Positions 482-27,137 of a stretch of DNA of 32,000 nucleotides are shown here, piece by piece. The stretch lies in contig OY969938.1 in assembly GCA_963704755.1 (NCBI GenBank), positions 3,690,001-3,722,000 on the forward strand, read 5' to 3'. This DNA comes from an uncultured Chloroflexia bacterium. Lineage in GTDB: Bacteria > Chloroflexota > Anaerolineae > Anaerolineales > Anaerolineaceae. The stretch's first letter is position 1. Each line of letters begins with the position of its first letter. Both the position numbers and the translations under genes were made by a program. The notes under the pieces were generated by a model. The model had not been told where the DNA came from and did no database searches. It was given only the letters and a program-made list of their open reading frames with translations.

Positions 482-1967
482 ATGATAGAATCCCCACCAT
501 TTGTCGGTAGAATAGCTGAATTAAACCTGCTGGATGACCTGTACGCCAGCAATAAATCTGAATTTCTGGTTCTTTACGGTCGGCGTCGTGTAGGAAAAAC
601 AAGGCTGTTAACCGAATGGCTCACGACCCGGAAGATCAAACCCATCTTCTTTGTTTCCGAACAAGATTTCAAGAGAATCATTACTGCGCCAGTTTTCGCA
701 AATAGTTTACAAGAAAGCATTCCCGACTTTACCCGTACCCGAATCATTTTCGTTTGCCAATTGGGGCCAGGTCTGGAACCAGATCGGCGAGCTTGCCAAA
801 GGGGAAAGGTTGGTTGTATTCATCGATGAATTTACTTACATGATGGCCGCAGATCCGACCCTCGCCAGCAATCTGCAACGCGCCTGGGATGCTGCATTAG
901 AAAATGCCAATATTTTCCTGTGTATTTCCGGTTCCCATTTAGTTATGATGGTTCGAGGGATATTATCCGGAACTGCGCCATTGTATGGGAGAACCACAGC
1001 CAAAATGGAATTGAAACCGCTTCCTTTTGGCATCACAAAGTCATATTTTAAGCGCTATCCAGCTCCTGAAAGGGTCATGCTCTATTCCGTTTTTGGCGGC
1101 ATTCCCCACTATTGGCGGCTGATTGACCAGAATAAATCTGTTTCGGACAATATCAAGCGCTTATTGTTGTCACCGGGCGGAAATTTGAAGGATGAACCGC
1201 GTATTCTTTTGAACGATTACATCAGTGATCCCAATAATTATATTGCCATCCTACGAGCAATAGCGAATGGATACGCTACACCTAAGGAGATTGAAAATTT
1301 TACCGGGATTCCCAATTTCCACCTGTCACAATATATTTCCAACTTGGTAAGCACAGGATATGTGGTCAAAAAAATGCCTGTTACGGCAGGACTTTCTTCC
1401 AGAGCAGGGCGGCATACAATTACCGACCCATTTTTGCGGTTCTATTACCGTTTTATTCATTCCAGGCTGACCCAGTTGGAAATGGGTGAAATTGACCAAA
1501 CTCTGGAAGAGCTCCAAAAGCATATGGTGGATTATATCGGTACATATACATGGGAAGAAATTTGTCGCGAATGGACTATCCGGGCAAGCAATCGTGGAGT
1601 CCTACCTCTCTATCCTGATCGAGTAGAAAGCGATTGGGGAAAAGACCACCAGGTGGATGTCGTCGGCATTAATACGATGAAAAAGCACCTGATCTTAGGC
1701 GAATGTAAATGGATTAAAGAACGTGGAAAGGCAACCATTTTACAGGAACTTGTTGAGAAAAAAACGCCCAAAGTCGTTCCAACTTCCGGCAACTGGCAAG
1801 TCTACTTCCTTGGGTTCTCGCGTGAGGGGTGGAATGAAAATGCTGTTGGATATGTGAGGAATTTTTCTCAATCCCCTCCAACGGGTACAAATTGGACAGG
1901 GCAAGGAATCCGGTTACTCACGCTGGATGATGTGGATACGGACCTGTGCGAATGGGCAAATTCATAG
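482..1967 (+). pseudogene. AAA+ ATP-binding protein of the archaeal-ATPase/DUF234 family, split by a 1-nt frameshift near 660-668
   Basis: Walker A (YGRRRVGKT) lies in the frame of ORF 419..829, with a likely start at ATG 482 (MIESPPFVGR). Walker B (LVVFIDEF) and the DUF234-like C-terminus (VDVVGIN..LILGECKW) lie in the frame of ORF 651..1967. The two frames overlap, and the protein reads continuously as ..KPIFFVSEQ / ISRESLLRQFS if one base is skipped. A sequencing error cannot be excluded. Confidence 0.6.
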
Positions 1968-5705: not shown

Positions 5706-6701
5706 TCACTTTGGGAATCGAATAACGAATATCGCGCCTCCCTGTGGATGATTTTTTGCGGTAATCGTCCCTCCTTGCCGAGTGATTATCGTCTTGCACA
5801 GGGCTAAGCCAATCCCGTATCCTGTAGCGTTCGAATTTTTCCCACGATAAAACCGGTCAAACAGGTAAGGCAAATCTTCTTTTTCGAAGCCCGCGCCGCT
5901 GTCGTGGATGGCGATCTCGGTAAATAACGGGTTGTCCAGGCAAATAATCTCAATCTTTCCGTGCTCTCCTGCACTTTCAAGACAATTCTTGAGCACGTTT
6001 TGAATTGCTTCCGAAAGCCAACCGGCATCACCCTGAATAGTCATCGCCTTTGGCGCATCTACCTGCACATTCATAGCACGCAGTTCCATTGGGATCAGGA
6101 ACGGGCGAAGCGCAGCGCCGATCAAGTCGTTTACATCTATCCGGTCGCTTTGGAACGTCACAATGCCCGCGTCCAGGCGGGATAATTTCAAAAGGGAGGT
6201 AATCAGCCAATCCATGCGCAGCAGCAATTCCTCGGTTTCCCGCACAAATGCTTTCCGCTCATTCTCATCCGGGTTATTGGCTAACAATGACAGGATAAGG
6301 TTGGCGGACGTGAGCGGGGTGCGGAGTTGGTGAGCGATGTCGGCCAGCGATTCGGCCAGGTGTTCTTTTTCCTTTTTCAGCGCGTCGTTTTGCTCCCGAA
6401 TACGCAGCATCATTTTTGTGATCTCGCTGTGCAGAATGGAAAGTTCACCCTCGTCCGATTCACCGATGTACAGATGGTCGGCATTATGAAGTACCAGGTC
6501 GATTTGATTTGAGATTTGCGCAATGCTTTCGTACCGGGTTTTGGTAAACAAGAAAAACGCTGTGCCAAAGGCGACGACAGAAGCAATGGCTACGATTCCG
6601 GCCGTGGTATTGATGGCAAATTCCAGCATTACAGCAACGGCGGCGATTATGGCGAACAAAATGGCAAACCGCAGCAACTCTCTATTCCGAAGCATACTCA
6701 C
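5706..6701 (-). CDS. Sensor histidine kinase, intramembrane-sensing type (two N-terminal TMs, no sizeable extracytoplasmic domain)
   Basis: H-box IAHQLRTPLTS, G1 HDSGAGF, G2 GYGIGLALCK. Two hydrophobic helices lie in the first ~55 aa. The ORF overlaps the end of the response regulator gene. Confidence 0.85.
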   Translation of the reverse strand: MSMLRNRELLRFAILFAIIAAVAVMLEFAINTTAGIVAIASVVAFGTAFFLFTKTRYESIAQISNQIDLVLHNADHLYIGESDEGELSILHSEITKMMLRIREQNDALKKEKEHLAESLADIAHQLRTPLTSANLILSLLANNPDENERKAFVRETEELLLRMDWLITSLLKLSRLDAGIVTFQSDRIDVNDLIGAALRPFLIPMELRAMNVQVDAPKAMTIQGDAGWLSEAIQNVLKNCLESAGEHGKIEIICLDNPLFTEIAIHDSGAGFEKEDLPYLFDRFYRGKNSNATGYGIGLALCKTIITRQGGTITAKNHPQGGAIFVIRFPK

Positions 6702-22134: not shown

Positions 22135-22980
22135 GCTATAAAAACACAAAGCCCGGCTTACGTCGGGCTCTCTGGTTGCGTAGCTCGGCTTTCAAAGCCG
22201 AGAAAACGCCGGCCGAAAAGAGTTCCGGCTACGGAAACGACCTGAACCAAAAAGGAGCCCCACGAAGGTGGGGCTTTGTGTATCTGTAGGTGCAGCTTTA
22301 GCTGCCAACAGTTCGTTCCTGCTTCTACGTTGGCGACTGAAGTCGCAGCTATAAAAACACAAAGCCCGGCCTACGCCGGGATCTCTGGTTGCGTAGCTCG
22401 GCTTTCAAAGCCGAGAAAACACCGGCCGAATAGATTTCCGGCTACGGAAACGACCTGAACCAAAAAAGAGTCCCACGAAGGTGGGGCTTTGTGTATCTGT
22501 AGGTGCAGCTTTAGCTGCCAACGGTTCGTTCCTGCTTCTACGTTGGCGACTGAAGTCGCGGCAAAAAGTACACAAAGCCCGGCCTACGCCGGGCGCTCTG
22601 GTTGCGTAGCTCGGCTTTCAAAGCCGAGAAAACGCCGGCCGAAAAGAGTTCCGGCTACGGAAACGACCTGAACCAAAAAGGAGCCCCACGAAAGTGGGGC
22701 TTTGCGTATCTGTAGGTGCAGCTTTAGCTGCCAACGGTTCGTACCTGCTTCTACGTTGGCGACTGAAGTCGCAGCTATAAAAACACAAAGCCCGGCCTAC
22801 GCCGGGCTCTCTGGTTGCGTAGCTCGGCTTTCAAAGCCGAGAAAACGCCGGCCGAATAGAGTTCCGGCTACGGAAACGATCTGAACCAAAAAGGAGCACC
22901 ACGAAGGTGGGGCTTTGTGTATCTGTAGGTGCAGCTTTAGCTGCCAACGGTTCGTTCAATAGCTCGGCCTTCAAAGCCAG
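22135..22980. repeat. Tandem array 1: ~3.9 copies of a 213-bp hairpin-dense unit (REP/BIME-like)
   Basis: ACACAAAGCCC recurs at 22143, 22356, 22569 and 22782, an exact 213-bp period. Each unit has at least 5 GC-rich stem-loops. The array ends with a degenerate hairpin copy at about 22960-22978. Confidence 0.92.
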
Positions 22981-22987
22981 GAAATAT

Positions 22988-23172: not shown

Positions 23173-23227
23173 CCCGAATTTAAGGTGTTTGCGAGGGCGA
23201 AGCCCTCGCAAACACCTTAAATTCGGG
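23173..23227. repeat. Perfect 26-bp-stem palindrome with GAA triloop (palindrome family A)
   Basis: CCCGAATTTAAGGTGTTTGCGAGGGC-GAA-GCCCTCGCAAACACCTTAAATTCGGG; the arms are exact reverse complements. Confidence 0.85.
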
Positions 23228-23340: not shown

Positions 23341-23997
23341 ATCGTCGTGGCAACCCACGAAGCTTAAAAAGAAAAACCTCAACTTTATGAGGTTTTTTGA
23401 GCGGGCGATGGGAACTCGATCATTGATCCCCCTACGGGGAACCACGAACTTAAAAAGAAAAACCTCAACTTTATGAGGTTTTTTGAGCGGGCGATGGGAC
23501 ACGATCATTGATCCCCCCGCGGGGAACCACGAGCTTAAAAAGAAAAACCTCAACTTTATGAGGTTTTTTAAGCAGGCGATGGGACACGATCATTGATCCC
23601 CCTACGGGGAACCACGAGCTTAAAAAGAAAAACCTCAACTTTATGAGGTTTTTTGAGCGGGCGATGGGACACGATCATTGATCCCCCTACGGGGAACCAC
23701 GAGCTTAAAAAGAAAAACCTCAACTTTATGAGGTTTTTTGAGCGAGCGATGGGACACGATCATTGATCCCCCTACGGGGAACCACGAAGCTTAAAAAGAA
23801 AAACCTCAACTTTATGAGGTTTTTTGAGCGGGCGATGGGACTCGATCATTGATCCCCCTACGGGGAACCACGAGGTTAAAAAGAAAAACCTCAACTTTAT
23901 GAGGTTTTTTGAGCGGGCGATGGGACACGATCATTGATCCCCCTACGGGGAACCACGAAGCTTAAAAAGAAAAACCTCAACTTTATGAGGTTTTTTG
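23341..23997. repeat. Tandem array of eight 85/86-bp units directly abutting the tRNA-Gly 3' end. Each unit has a terminator hairpin plus a CCCC-CTAC-GGGG hairpin, and seven units also carry a 15-19-nt copy of the tRNA-Gly 3' end.
   Basis: CCTCAACTTT starts at 23377, 23463, 23548, 23633, 23718, 23804, 23889 and 23975. AGCGGGCGATGGGA(C) recurs 7 times and an eighth time as the true tRNA end. Confidence 0.92.
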
Positions 23998-24070
<73 letters not shown>

Positions 24071-24622: not shown

Positions 24623-25255
24623 ATGGAATTGATTCCGAAAAGCGGTTACTATTATCCGAACAAGATTGCCCGCATCGCGCTCCTGGCGATCGAGGACGTG
24701 ATGGGCAAAAATGGACTTAATGCAGTTTTGAACCTGGCCGGGTTAAGCGAAATCATTAACCATTACCCGCCGGATAACCTCGAGCGCCAGTTCGACTTTG
24801 CCGATTTCTCGGCCGTTCAGGGTGGGCTGGAGGAGATGTACGGTCCGCGCGGTGGGCGAGGACTGGCTTTACGGGCCGGACGGGCTACTTTCGACGCTGC
24901 GCTGCGTAACTTCGGCGCCCTGGCCGGGGTGGGTGACCTGGCTTTCAAGGTGCTGCCGCTGCAAGCCAAGCTGCGCATCGGCATGGGGGCAATGGCCCGT
25001 ATCTTTTCACAAACCAGCGACCAGCAGACCACGGTCGAGGAAAAAGACGACCATTTCGTCTACCTTATTCACCGCTGCCCGGTCTGTTGGGGGCGACAAA
25101 CCGAAAAGCCGGCCTGTTTTATCGCCACGGGCTTGCTCCAGGAGGGCCTGAAATGGGTCTCGGGGGGACACGAGTTTCGCGTTTCGCAGGAAACGGCCCA
25201 TTCGGCAGGAGACGAATCCTGCAATTTCATCATTTATAAAGATCCGCTCGAATAG
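24623..25255 (+). CDS. V4R (4-vinyl reductase) domain protein
   Basis: C-terminal pattern HRCPVC..KPACFIATGLLQEGLKWVSGG..AGDESCNFII is characteristic of V4R / COG1719-type small-molecule-binding domains. Confidence 0.7.
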   Translation: MELIPKSGYYYPNKIARIALLAIEDVMGKNGLNAVLNLAGLSEIINHYPPDNLERQFDFADFSAVQGGLEEMYGPRGGRGLALRAGRATFDAALRNFGALAGVGDLAFKVLPLQAKLRIGMGAMARIFSQTSDQQTTVEEKDDHFVYLIHRCPVCWGRQTEKPACFIATGLLQEGLKWVSGGHEFRVSQETAHSAGDESCNFIIYKDPLE

Positions 25256-25355
25256 GGGACCGGGTGGAATGAGAGCGTCCTCTCTGCTTTTCGGGAGCAA
25301 TTTTCGACAAATAGAGGGTTGCCTCGATCCAAATCGGGATAAAATTAGTGCATAT

Positions 25356-25392
25356 CCGGCGGCCCAGAAATTTCCATTGGCCGCCGGTTGTT
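25356..25392 (+). terminator. Weak terminator candidate CCGGCGGCC..(13-nt loop)..GGCCGCCGG-TTGTTT
   Basis: 9-bp GC stem followed by a short interrupted T tract, downstream of the V4R gene. Confidence 0.35.
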
Positions 25393-25441
25393 TACGGCGT
25401 CGTGAACGGCGCTGCATAAAAAATCAATCATCAGGTATTCT

Positions 25442-26179
25442 TTGAAAACGACTTTTGTTATTCCGACGTATAACGAAGCAGAGAATTTGCCCAAGCTGGC
25501 TTCGGCTTTATTCGATTTGGGCTTGAGCGATTTGAGCCTGCTGGTGGTGGACGATAACAGCCCGGACGGTACCGGCCAAATCGCCGAAGACCTGGCGGTG
25601 CAGTGGAACGGGCGAGTGCAGGTGATGCACCGGCCGGGTAAGATGGGCCTGGGCAGTGCCTACATTCAGGGTTTTACCCGCGCGCTCAACCTGGGGGCCG
25701 AGGCGATTGGCCAGATGGACGCCGATTTTTCTCACCCGACCGAAAAGGTGGCTGACTTAACGCGTTCCTCCGAAACTGCCGACCTCTCGCTGGGTTCGCG
25801 CTACGTGCCGGGCGGAAAATTGGACGATCGCTGGCCGGCCTCGCGAAAATGGCTCTCCGGCTTTGGAAATGTTTATGCTCGTACTATCCTGGGAATGCAG
25901 ATTCGCGACGTGACCGGTGGGTTCCGCCTATGGCGGGCGGAAGCGCTGCGGCGTATGCCTTTGGAGCGGGTCAAGTCGAATGGTTACATCTTCCAGGTGG
26001 AGATGGCTTACATCGCCAGCCTGTTGGGGTTTCGTGTCACCGAAATCCCGATCTACTTTGCCGACCGGCGCTGGGGCCAGTCCAAGATGTCGATGCGGAT
26101 CCAGTTGGAGGCGGCTTACCGGACCTGGCTGCTGCCTGGCCTGTACACCGATCTGCGCCGGAAGCGCTCGCTGCTGTAG
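25442..26179 (+). CDS. GT2 polyprenol/dolichol-phosphate mannosyltransferase (Ppm1/DPM1-like)
   Basis: FVIPTYNEAENL, VVDDNSPDGT and QMDADFSHP motifs. TTG start. The stop codon TAG (26177-26179) lies inside the first GTAG motif of repeat array 2. Confidence 0.85.
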   Translation: MKTTFVIPTYNEAENLPKLASALFDLGLSDLSLLVVDDNSPDGTGQIAEDLAVQWNGRVQVMHRPGKMGLGSAYIQGFTRALNLGAEAIGQMDADFSHPTEKVADLTRSSETADLSLGSRYVPGGKLDDRWPASRKWLSGFGNVYARTILGMQIRDVTGGFRLWRAEALRRMPLERVKSNGYIFQVEMAYIASLLGFRVTEIPIYFADRRWGQSKMSMRIQLEAAYRTWLLPGLYTDLRRKRSLL

Positions 26180-27000
26180 CCCGGCTTTCCAAGCCGGGAA
26201 TGTGCTGGGTTAAAGAGCCTTCGAGGTTATAACCAGGCCTTTGGCCACGGCGGTGGCAGTTGAAACTGCACCTACAAGGACACAAAGCCCCACCTGCGTG
26301 GGGCTCCTTTGGGAGTGCAGGTCGCTGCCTAAGGCGGAACTCTGTTCGGGCGGCGTATTCTCGGCTTTGAAAGCCGAGCTACGCAACCGGGGAGCCCGGC
26401 GAAGGCCGGGCTTTGTGTATTTGTAGAAGCGACTTCAGTCGCTAACGAATGAAGACACCCTGTAGCCCGGCTTTCCAAGCCGGGAATGTGCTTGGTTAAA
26501 AGAGCCTTCGAGGTTATAACCAGGCCTTTGGCCACGGCGGTGGCAGTTGAAACTGCACCTACAAGGACACAAAGCCTCACCTGCGTGGGGCTCCTTTTTG
26601 GCTACAGGTCGCTGCCTAAGCCGGAACTCTGTTCGGGCGGCGTATTCTCGGCTTTGAAAGCCGAGCTACGCAACCGGGGAACCCGGCGAAGGCCGGGCTT
26701 TGTGTATTTGTAGCCGCGACTTCAGTCGCTAACGAATGAAGACACCCTGTAGCCCGGCTTTCCAAGCCGGGAATGTGCTGGGTTAAAAGAGCCTTCGAGG
26801 TTATAACCAGGCCTTTGGCCACGGCGGTGGCAGTTGAAACTGCACCTACGAGGACAAAAAAGCCCCACCTGCGTGGAGCTCCTTTTGGGGGTGCAGGTCG
26901 TTTCCGTAGCCGGAGACCTGTTCGGGGGGCGTATTCTCGGCTTTGAAAGCCGAGCTACGCAACCGCGGAGCCCGGCGAAGGCCGGGCTTTGTACTTCTGT
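26175..27000. repeat. Tandem array 2: ~2.9 copies of a 286/287-bp unit. It has a core homologous to array 1 but in inverted orientation, plus an extra GTAG-hairpin module.
   Basis: TGTAGCCCGGCTTTCCAAGCCGGG occurs at 26175, 26461 and 26748. The core (e.g. 26265-26420) is the reverse complement of the array 1 unit at roughly 80-85% identity by eye. Confidence 0.92.
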
Positions 27001-27137
27001 TGATGCACTTTCTATCGTTAACGAGGCAAATTAATCCCACCGATCCAATTGCACTGCATCCTTTCTCAAGGAATTTTCGTATACGAAAGTGGGATAAACA
27101 AAATTGGATGAGGGGGGTAAAAATATTGGGAGGAAAA

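Follow-up and report, generated by a model that had tools for sequence, protein, structure and literature searches.

In a 32,000-nt stretch of contig OY969938.1 (positions 3,690,001 to 3,722,000, assembly GCA_963704755.1; hereafter the window) from an uncultured Chloroflexia bacterium of the Anaerolineaceae, a tandem array begins 0 nt from the stop codon of a family 2 glycosyltransferase (GT2) gene. We interpret this array, named array 2 (26174-26992 in window coordinates), as a cluster of GTAG-tagged repetitive extragenic palindromes (REPs) resembling the bacterial interspersed mosaic elements (BIMEs), and we give this class assignment, made from anatomy within the 32-kb window, a probability of about 60%. 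The repeat unit is a composite with a nested architecture and would belong to a known repeat class; nothing points to a new mechanism. The REPs that RAYT/TnpA-REP transposases recognise are characterised by a GTAG that adjoins the base of a short hairpin (RAYT, REP-associated tyrosine transposase; PMC3733652, PMC6006769), and GTAG REPs are present in the Chloroflexi and Verrucomicrobia (Di Nocera et al. 2013, PMC3733652).

Tandem Repeats Finder detected three tandem arrays in the window: array 1, an 85-nt array, and array 2, the last with a period of 287 nt, 2.9 copies and 94% matches. Array 2 is flanked by two plus-strand genes, GT2 and a CoA-binding protein gene. Its units, and array 1, are as follows.

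26174..26459, plus strand, unit 1 of array 2, 286 nt (Tandem Repeats Finder and repeat search)
26460..26746, plus strand, unit 2 of array 2, 287 nt, 96% identical to unit 1
26747..27024, plus strand, unit 3 of array 2, near-identical to units 1 and 2 as far as ~26890
22135..22957, minus strand, array 1, 213-nt unit x 3.9, inverted relative to array 2 and 3.2 kb away

The motif TGTAGCCCGGCTTTCCAAGCCGGG starts at 26175, 26461 and 26748, exactly where the original prediction had placed it, and GTAG starts at 26176, 26462 and 26749. The 23-mer hairpin has 10 matches in the window and none in 100 shuffles, which excludes an origin by chance. A CRISPR array was rejected because the whole 287-nt period repeats with nothing unique between the copies, and an integron attC array because cassettes are lacking. 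The open reading frames (ORFs) of up to 83 aa within the arrays are spurious; they have no Pfam match, and the translated repeats, used as protein queries, retrieved no homologue from a protein collection in which the ORFs themselves are absent.

Hairpin anatomy of the repeat unit

The unit is a mosaic of short perfect hairpins, which are listed here by name.

26647..26669, 26360-26382 and 26936-26958, minus strand, REP-I, GTAG-CTCGGCTTT-CA-AAGCCGAG, invariant in 7/7 units of both arrays
starts 26176, 26462 and 26749, plus strand, REP-I', GTAG-CCCGGCTT-TCC-AAGCCGGG, in a 72-nt insert, paralogue of REP-I
26543..26562, 26256-26275 and 26830-26849, minus strand, REP-II, GTAG-GT-GCAGT-TTCA-ACTGC
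26710..26729, and 26423-26442 with an AA spacer, plus strand, REP-II', GTAG-CC-GCGAC-TTCA-GTCGC, degenerate in unit 3
26906..26925, plus strand, fifth GTAG-tagged hairpin, GTAG-CCGGAGACCTGTTCGG (GTAG-CCGGAA..TTCGG), only in unit 3 and every array 1 unit
26574..26591, 26287-26304 and 26862-26879, plus strand, hairpin b, GCC(C/T)CAC-CTGC-GTGGGGC followed by CCTTTTT, terminator-like
26681..26698, 26394-26411 and 26970-26987, plus strand, hairpin d, (G/A)CCCGGC-GAAG-GCCGGGC followed by TTTGTGTATTTGT, terminator-like

Four hairpin types in each array 2 unit have GTAG 0-2 nt 5' of the stem, and the fifth is added in unit 3 and in array 1. Stems and loops measure 8-9 bp and 2-3 nt in REP-I and REP-I', and 5-6 bp and 2-4 nt in REP-II and REP-II'. 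The latter two, in general form GTAG-GT-GCAGY-TTYA-RCTGC and GTAG-NN-GCGAC-TTCA-GTCGC, are each followed by (C/T)AACG, while the GC-rich hairpins b and d each have ACACAAAG on one flank. Across the window GTAG stands 0-2 nt 5' of a perfect hairpin (stem of at least 5 bp) 20 times, with 19 of these sites in the two arrays and one in a coding region, and it is the commonest tetramer before the hairpins of the unit (six cases, against three for the next tetramers).

Over the six full units, 94% of the hairpin cells are paired, compared with 29-45% when the partners are slid, and two pairs have changed on both sides. REP-I and REP-I' differ by a compensatory T-A to C-G change in the stem, and compensatory differences separate the paralogous hairpins CTCGG/CCGAG and CCCGG/CCGGG, GCAGC and GCGAC, and GCCCCAC and GCCCGGC. 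Retention between the arrays of the hairpins GCCCCAC, CTCGGCTTT, GCCCGGC and GCGAC had been proposed from inspection, and all four were found to be retained. The GCAGY hairpin is a fifth, kept through a compensatory C-G to T-A change: the array 1 version of REP-II reads GCAGC-TTTA-GCTGC, a compensatory pair difference.

REP-I' on the plus strand and REP-I on the minus strand alternate along array 2, with start-to-start distances of 184, 102, 185, 102 and 187 nt; the REP-I copies of array 1 all point in the same direction. A 196-nt core of the unit is a quasi-palindrome, 62-65% identical to its own reverse complement. In the self-complement alignment the array 1 unit scores 32, where shuffles give about -125 +/- 20, and the array 2 unit scores 6, where they give about -112 +/- 20; a search with nhmmer likewise matches the unit to its opposite strand, at E=1e-12 to 1e-16. 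Since the core is quasi-palindromic, we read the unit as an inverted doublet of a ~98-nt half-unit with three hairpins, namely a small GTAG-NN-tagged hairpin of 5-6 bp, a GC-rich hairpin of 7-9 bp and a GTAG-tagged hairpin of 8 bp.

Such self-complementarity is also a property of miniature inverted-repeat transposable elements (MITEs) of the ERIC or Correia type, in which case the 196-nt quasi-palindrome would represent the terminal inverted repeats of an unrelated insertion sequence family, tandemly amplified and not RAYT-dependent. The arms of the imperfect palindrome (~57 nt, 72-75% complementary, the whole being self-complementary overall) and a unit length of 200-290 nt, typical of MITEs, agree with this origin. 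However, there is no target-site duplication and there are no defined termini, the arrays beginning and ending at different unit phases; no match was found in the plasmid or phage collections; and the GTAG tags indicate the REP class. Head-to-tail tandem arrays of MITEs are, to our knowledge, unusual, which also counts against this explanation, and we consider it improbable. The enterobacterial repetitive intergenic consensus or intergenic repeat unit (ERIC/IRU) and the Correia elements of Neisseria do share the form of a 100-200-nt imperfect palindrome in transcribed intergenic DNA, but they are dispersed single copies with defined termini (and, for Correia elements, target duplications), without GTAG-tagged sub-hairpins or head-to-tail arrays.

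Two inverted arrays and the end of the GT2 gene

Array 1 is flanked by a tRNA-Gly gene and an O-methyltransferase gene, both on the minus strand. A repeat search found that the two arrays share ungapped inverted arms of 133-141 nt that are 85-86% complementary, and a MAFFT alignment, made after rotating the units to a common phase, matched the whole 213-nt array 1 unit to array 2; identity is 78-80% along the full 213 nt and rises to 84-85% in the first 175 columns. The similarity runs through linkers as well as hairpins (e.g. the 31-nt invariant TTCTCGGCTTTGAAAGCCGAGCTACGCAACC), so that it is not confined to GC hairpins; such confinement would have refuted the proposed relationship. Inverting an array-1-type unit and adding a single insert of 72 nt gives the array 2 unit, which bears out the original prediction that array 2 carries the array 1 core in inverted orientation together with an extra module. 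That core had been estimated at about 155-170 bp with 80-85% identity; the shared length has to be extended to the whole 213-nt unit. The only further match to a profile of the unit in the 32-kb window is a degenerate hairpin that borders array 1 at 22956-22984. The insert is placed as follows.

26176-26246, 26462-26533 and 26749-26820, plus strand, 72-nt module not in array 1 (rotated alignment and motif coordinates)

The insert contains GTAG-CCCGGCTTTCCAAGCCGGG, CCTTCGAGG and GGCCTTTGGCC (GGCC-TTT-GGCC). All three motifs previously ascribed to the extra module are present, but the description of CCTTCGAGG as a palindrome has to be qualified, as its reverse complement is CCTCGAAGG and it is a near-palindrome only. 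The third copy had been noted to carry array-1-type sequence, from which exchange of segments between the arrays was proposed. Such sequence, CGTTTCCGTAGCCGGA, does lie at 26899-26914, but the argument for exchange is a weak one: copy 3 is of array-2 type at 16 of the 21 sites diagnostic between the arrays, and four of its five array-1-type sites form one 7-nt patch (26901-26907) in the decayed terminal half-unit. The patch restores the GTAG of the fifth tagged hairpin, in place of which units 1 and 2 have CCTAAG. On the simplest reading the edge copy would have kept the ancestral state and units 1 and 2 would share a derived, clustered change; retention at the edge explains the patch without exchange because array 1, as outgroup, has the same state. 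A short conversion tract would be the alternative explanation of the patch.

Decay is concentrated at the far end of array 2. The terminal half-unit of unit 3 (26884-27024, repeat family D4) is 84% identical to unit 1 in the repeat search, where family D6 gives 93%, its final GCGAC hairpin is degenerate, and nhmmer unit matches reach 27039. Identity falls from 96% between interior copies to ~84% in the terminal half-unit and 78-85% between the arrays, the pattern that tandem arrays would show if homogenised internally after the composite had been copied to a second site. Mis-assembly of repeats might also have produced the array or its number of copies, since tandem repeats of 0.8 kb are difficult with short reads. 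Against such an artefact, the copies differ (interior copies are 96% identical, and the last copy reaches 81-82% in the 213-nt core) and decay in order towards the edge, and the window proteins lie on a single 4.87-Mb contig, which suggests a finished or long-read assembly; we regard it as very improbable.

Arrays 1 and 2 form 0.8-kb inverted repeats around a 3.2-kb segment with the tRNA-Gly gene, the 85-nt array and the Roadblock/LC7, V4R and GT2 genes. Homologous recombination could invert this segment, whose present orientation agrees with that in relatives. The last gene of the segment is as follows.

25442..26179, plus strand, GT2 gene (polyprenol monophosphomannose synthase-like, 245 aa; Pfam PF00535, E=1.8e-25)

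Homologues of this protein are annotated as polyprenol monophosphomannose synthase or dolichol-phosphate mannosyltransferase, and the named ones belong to the Anaerolineae Anaerolinea thermolimosa and Ornatilinea apprima. Its last codon and stop (CTGTAG, 26174-26179) are the first 6 nt of the repeat, and the TAG (26177-26179) lies in the first GTAG of array 2, as the original prediction stated. The further suggestion that the array may have set the C-terminus of the protein is contradicted by the comparison with an orthologue that lacks the array. The closest orthologue (P0002, 78% amino acid identity, locus L002) comes from an ENA metagenome contig on which the genes follow the same order (Roadblock/LC7, V4R, GT2, CoA-binding, flavodoxin, RrnaAD, DUF348-G5). 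It too has 245 aa, its last residue falls at the homologous position (...YTDLRKKRSLA*, as against ...YTDLRRKRSLL* in the window), and the 304-nt spacer downstream of its gene holds no tandem repeat. We conclude that the C-terminus is ancestral. Of the other 20 aligned homologues, all stop between 8 residues earlier and 7 later, and three (P0108, P0109 and P0025) stop exactly at this column. No more than the last codon and the kind of stop codon (CTG TAG) would derive from the repeat, and protein length is unchanged. TAG is the stop of 7 of the 26 genes in the window and, not being rare, is uninformative about the origin of the GT2 stop.

The spacer between GT2 and the next gene measures 959 nt in the window and 304, 167, 118 and 10 nt in four relatives, all without the array; by this comparison array 2 is lineage-specific. 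The spacers downstream of array 2 and in L002 are too diverged to align. A palindrome, TTTCGTATACGAAA, lies upstream of the CoA-binding gene at 27080-27100, and TTTTCGTATAC occupies a comparable position in L002; the two may represent an operator. Upstream of GT2, only a short spacer follows the V4R gene in the window (25255-25442, 186 nt), and the spacer of relative L022 is short too; in L002, L023 and L024 a response-regulator gene (Response_reg, joined by GGDEF in two of the three) separates V4R from GT2.

Class assignment and competing explanations

GTAG REPs have been described as stem-loops of 20-40 bp with stems of 5-13 bp and loops that are often TY or CMA; in some families a dinucleotide separates the tag from the stem and a conserved motif stands at the other side (PMC3733652). 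Their clusters reiterate in tandem with flanking DNA and often give the upstream ORF its TAG stop, and uni-directional REPs lie at most 20 bp from the 3' end of the upstream ORF (PMC3733652). An operational rule defines a REP by GTAG or GTGG 0-2 nt 5' of a hairpin, and a cluster by REPs at most 150 nt apart (PMC6006769). Array 2 corresponds to GTAG REPs in stem-loop size, in the distance of 0-2 nt between tag and stem, and in its extragenic location at the 3' end of the upstream ORF; its stems of 5-9 bp, loops of 2-4 nt and GTAG-plus-dinucleotide variant fit the description in PMC3733652, and its loops TCAA and TCCA contain CMA. Regularly spaced REPs in alternating orientation are given in PMC2817692 as the defining arrangement of BIMEs, and array 2 has this arrangement, with alternating REP-I' and REP-I, regular spacing and conserved linkers. 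The inverted-doublet form of the REPINs (REP doublets forming hairpins) is also seen, and the presence of the whole composite at two loci is the one observation suggesting that it may replicate as a unit, as REPINs do.

Among known systems, the GTAG REPs, and in the Chloroflexi the family GTAG-23 of Thermomicrobium roseum (PMC3733652), resemble array 2 in their published description. Shared traits are a GTAG that stays unpaired beside a stem of 5-9 bp, loops of 2-4 nt, sub-types whose stems have changed in complementary fashion, a variant in which a dinucleotide parts the tag from the stem, and an extragenic position abutting the 3' end of the upstream ORF, with the GTAG giving the TAG stop and tandem clusters including flanking DNA (PMC3733652). 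In contrast to GTAG-23, the host here belongs to the Anaerolineae and not the Thermomicrobia, and the unit is a 213-287-nt composite including two untagged GC-rich hairpins. The BIMEs of Escherichia coli are likewise mosaics of alternating, regularly spaced REPs with conserved non-REP motifs between them and a reiterated basic unit, located where a transcription unit has its 3' end, with genes of the same direction on either side; however, there is no sequence similarity, and the array 2 unit is several times longer, with 6-7 hairpins of three types. BIMEs are characterised by binding of integration host factor, DNA gyrase or Pol I. The REPINs (Bertels & Rainey 2011, PMC3116915) are also inverted doublets that can fold into a long imperfect hairpin, each arm being palindromic, but they are ~100 nt long and occur in hundreds of dispersed copies with a single RAYT gene, whereas here the arms are 98 nt with three hairpins and two tandem loci were seen.

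The tagged hairpin was also found outside the window. A scan with the exact 23-mer found one REP doublet in genome contigs, in a metagenome-assembled genome (MAG) of Prosthecobacter, and none in metagenome contigs; a degenerate hairpin pattern found 19 metagenome loci (doublets, head-to-tail pairs and clusters). In all of these the similarity ends at the ~23-25-nt hairpin. At the Prosthecobacter sp. locus (JBILYB010000028.1, 2665-2775), 25 nt identical to REP-I (GCGTAGCTCGGCTTTCAAAGCCGAG) form an arm of an inverted GTAG-REP doublet just past the stop of an ORF. For such a match in a Verrucomicrobium, the explanation would be that a common REP form evolved convergently or that the hairpin spread horizontally. 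Variants of the form GTAG-CNCGGCTTT..AAGCCGNG occur on unrelated metagenome contigs (L011 364-474, L013 4391-4537, L020 1646-1804 and L021 808-867) as head-to-tail pairs with 88- and 124-nt spacing, clusters and head-to-head doublets, and their presence in unrelated organisms indicates that the hairpin form is a widespread REP type. Closer to the window's host, an Anaerolineae contig whose GT2 is 76% identical (L024) has a tandem array of 74 nt x 2.6 (1175-1364, minus strand) downstream of tRNA-Gly (1466-1539). Its units carry CCCGTAG-TG-GCGGC-TTYA-GCCGC, with the architecture of REP-II, at a site syntenic to the repeat-rich region of the window, showing that GTAG-tagged hairpins in tandem blocks recur in the lineage.

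Several results weigh against the BIME-like assignment. A scan of 30 window ORFs, all the long ones included, found no Y1_Tnp/RAYT domain (PF01797). Dispersal is a hallmark of REPs, and there are no solitary copies of the module elsewhere in the 32 kb, only the two loci. The composite unit was found nowhere else in 23-mer scans of genome and metagenome collections whose contigs do not include the host genome, nor in the fetched loci, a protein search with the translated repeats, or plasmids and phages. At 213-287 nt the unit is far larger than the classical BIME unit, its two largest hairpins (b and d) have no adjacent GTAG, and the REP-II-type stems, at only 5-6 bp, fall short of the 7 bp of the stricter rule in PMC6006769. 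At the level of RNA, the RNAalifold covariation term of +1.31 kcal/mol is slightly unfavourable, with few independent events, and the terminator or RNA role that might be inferred for the arrays has sequence patterns as its sole basis.

The main rival draws on the same results. It holds that the arrays are a purely local minisatellite, in which a terminator or hairpin stretch was duplicated by slippage or unequal crossing-over and copied once by inverted segmental duplication, with no dedicated transposase and with GTAG as an incidental feature. Two loci only 3.2 kb apart with no solitary copies in 32 kb, no RAYT gene in the window, and a unit present in no other sequence searched all accord with this, as does the third, unrelated array (85 nt x 7.7) between the two, which marks the region as prone to tandem duplication. 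What it leaves unexplained is the GTAG 0-2 nt before four hairpin types and its top rank among flanking tetramers, the occurrence of the tagged hairpin as a REP in unrelated bacteria, and the different GTAG-hairpin array at the syntenic site of a relative; nor is the nested inverted-doublet architecture expected from simple duplication of a terminator region. We judge a purely local origin unlikely, though it deserves to be kept in mind.

A role in RNA would make the arrays tandem copies of a structured non-coding RNA (ncRNA) gene, or a functional RNA domain in the GT2 3' untranslated region (UTR) whose hairpins would bind or titrate a protein or RNase. The units fold far better than shuffles, with z = -4.8 to -6.2, and the two arrays share their orientation relative to local transcription. 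Terminator-like sites (a stem with a T-rich tail) number four on the plus strand and none on the minus strand of array 2, and ten on the minus strand and none on the plus strand of array 1, and are co-directional with the flanking genes in both. However, the units are equally stable on both strands, as expected of DNA palindromes, and good folding on both strands with no net covariation gives no preference for a role at the RNA level over DNA palindromes. G-U versus A-C mismatches in the hairpins showed no consistent strand bias in the unit alignment. In a search of the window with Rfam 15, only tRNAs reached the gathering score, and matches at E<=1 were spurious (miRNA and tRNA-Sec, far below threshold). 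No promoter-like site per unit was found, for which reason independent small RNA genes were rejected, and there is no conservation beyond this genome. We consider an ncRNA explanation quite improbable.

Neighbouring repeats and a model for array growth

Other repeats of the window lie in the segment between arrays 1 and 2.

23355-24016, 85-nt array, 7.7 copies, sequence unrelated to arrays 1 and 2 (Tandem Repeats Finder)

This array directly continues the 3' end of the tRNA-Gly(gcc) gene (23997-24070, minus strand). Read on the minus strand, its unit combines the tRNA's final ~21 nt (TCGAGTCCCATCGCCCGCTCA) with a hairpin of terminator type (AAAAACCTCATAAAGTTGAGGTTTTT) and, where the T-arm would be expected, an inserted hairpin CCCC-GTA-GGGG, and the array is a series of tandem pseudo-tRNA 3' halves with terminators. 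Between it and array 1 stands a perfect palindrome with a 26-bp stem, CCCGAATTTAAGGTGTTTGCGAGGGC-GAA-GCCCTCGCAAACACCTTAAATTCGGG (23173-23227). In L002 the variable region has AAATTTAAGGTTTGTTGGGCC-AAAAT-GGCCCAACAAACCTCAAATTT (5753-5800), with an identical outer stem and an inner stem that is different but still pairs, and the palindrome may be a conserved hairpin element.

For array 2 as a BIME-like cluster of GTAG-tagged REPs, we propose the following course of events. A Y1 HUH transposase of the RAYT/TnpA-REP type, with its gene in another part of the genome, would first have seeded the hairpins on single-stranded DNA. Two inverted half-units would have given a 196-nt REPIN-like doublet, and the composite would have come to occupy two loci in opposite orientation. 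In array 2 an extra GTAG hairpin with ~50 nt would then have been inserted at the unit junction before head-to-tail amplification, the tandem copies being made and homogenised through unequal recombination or replication slippage. Array 2 would be transcribed as the 3' UTR of GT2, and the two U-tailed GC hairpins of each unit could act as redundant intrinsic terminators or as barriers to 3' exonucleases before the next gene, a reading with which the strand-asymmetric, co-directional terminator-like sites agree. A bolder and, in our view, improbable extension is a Chloroflexi-type system in which the 196-nt nested-palindromic element is no passive REP debris and multiplies mainly as local tandem blocks instead of dispersing, with inverted blocks that could serve programmed inversion or bidirectional insulation of the tRNA-Gly/Roadblock/V4R/GT2 segment.

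The arrays call for some caution in annotation and assembly: array ORFs such as those described above should not be annotated as genes, and the 0.8-kb inverted repeats beside the 3.2-kb gene segment are a potential hotspot of inversion and mis-assembly. The order of steps from half-unit to inverted doublet, tandem array and secondary REP insertion could help to explain how REP clusters grow. If confirmed genome-wide, the finding would extend GTAG-tagged repeats of the REP/BIME type to the class Anaerolineae, and would provide a second example in the Chloroflexi of the unusual distribution of such repeats in a few large blocks.

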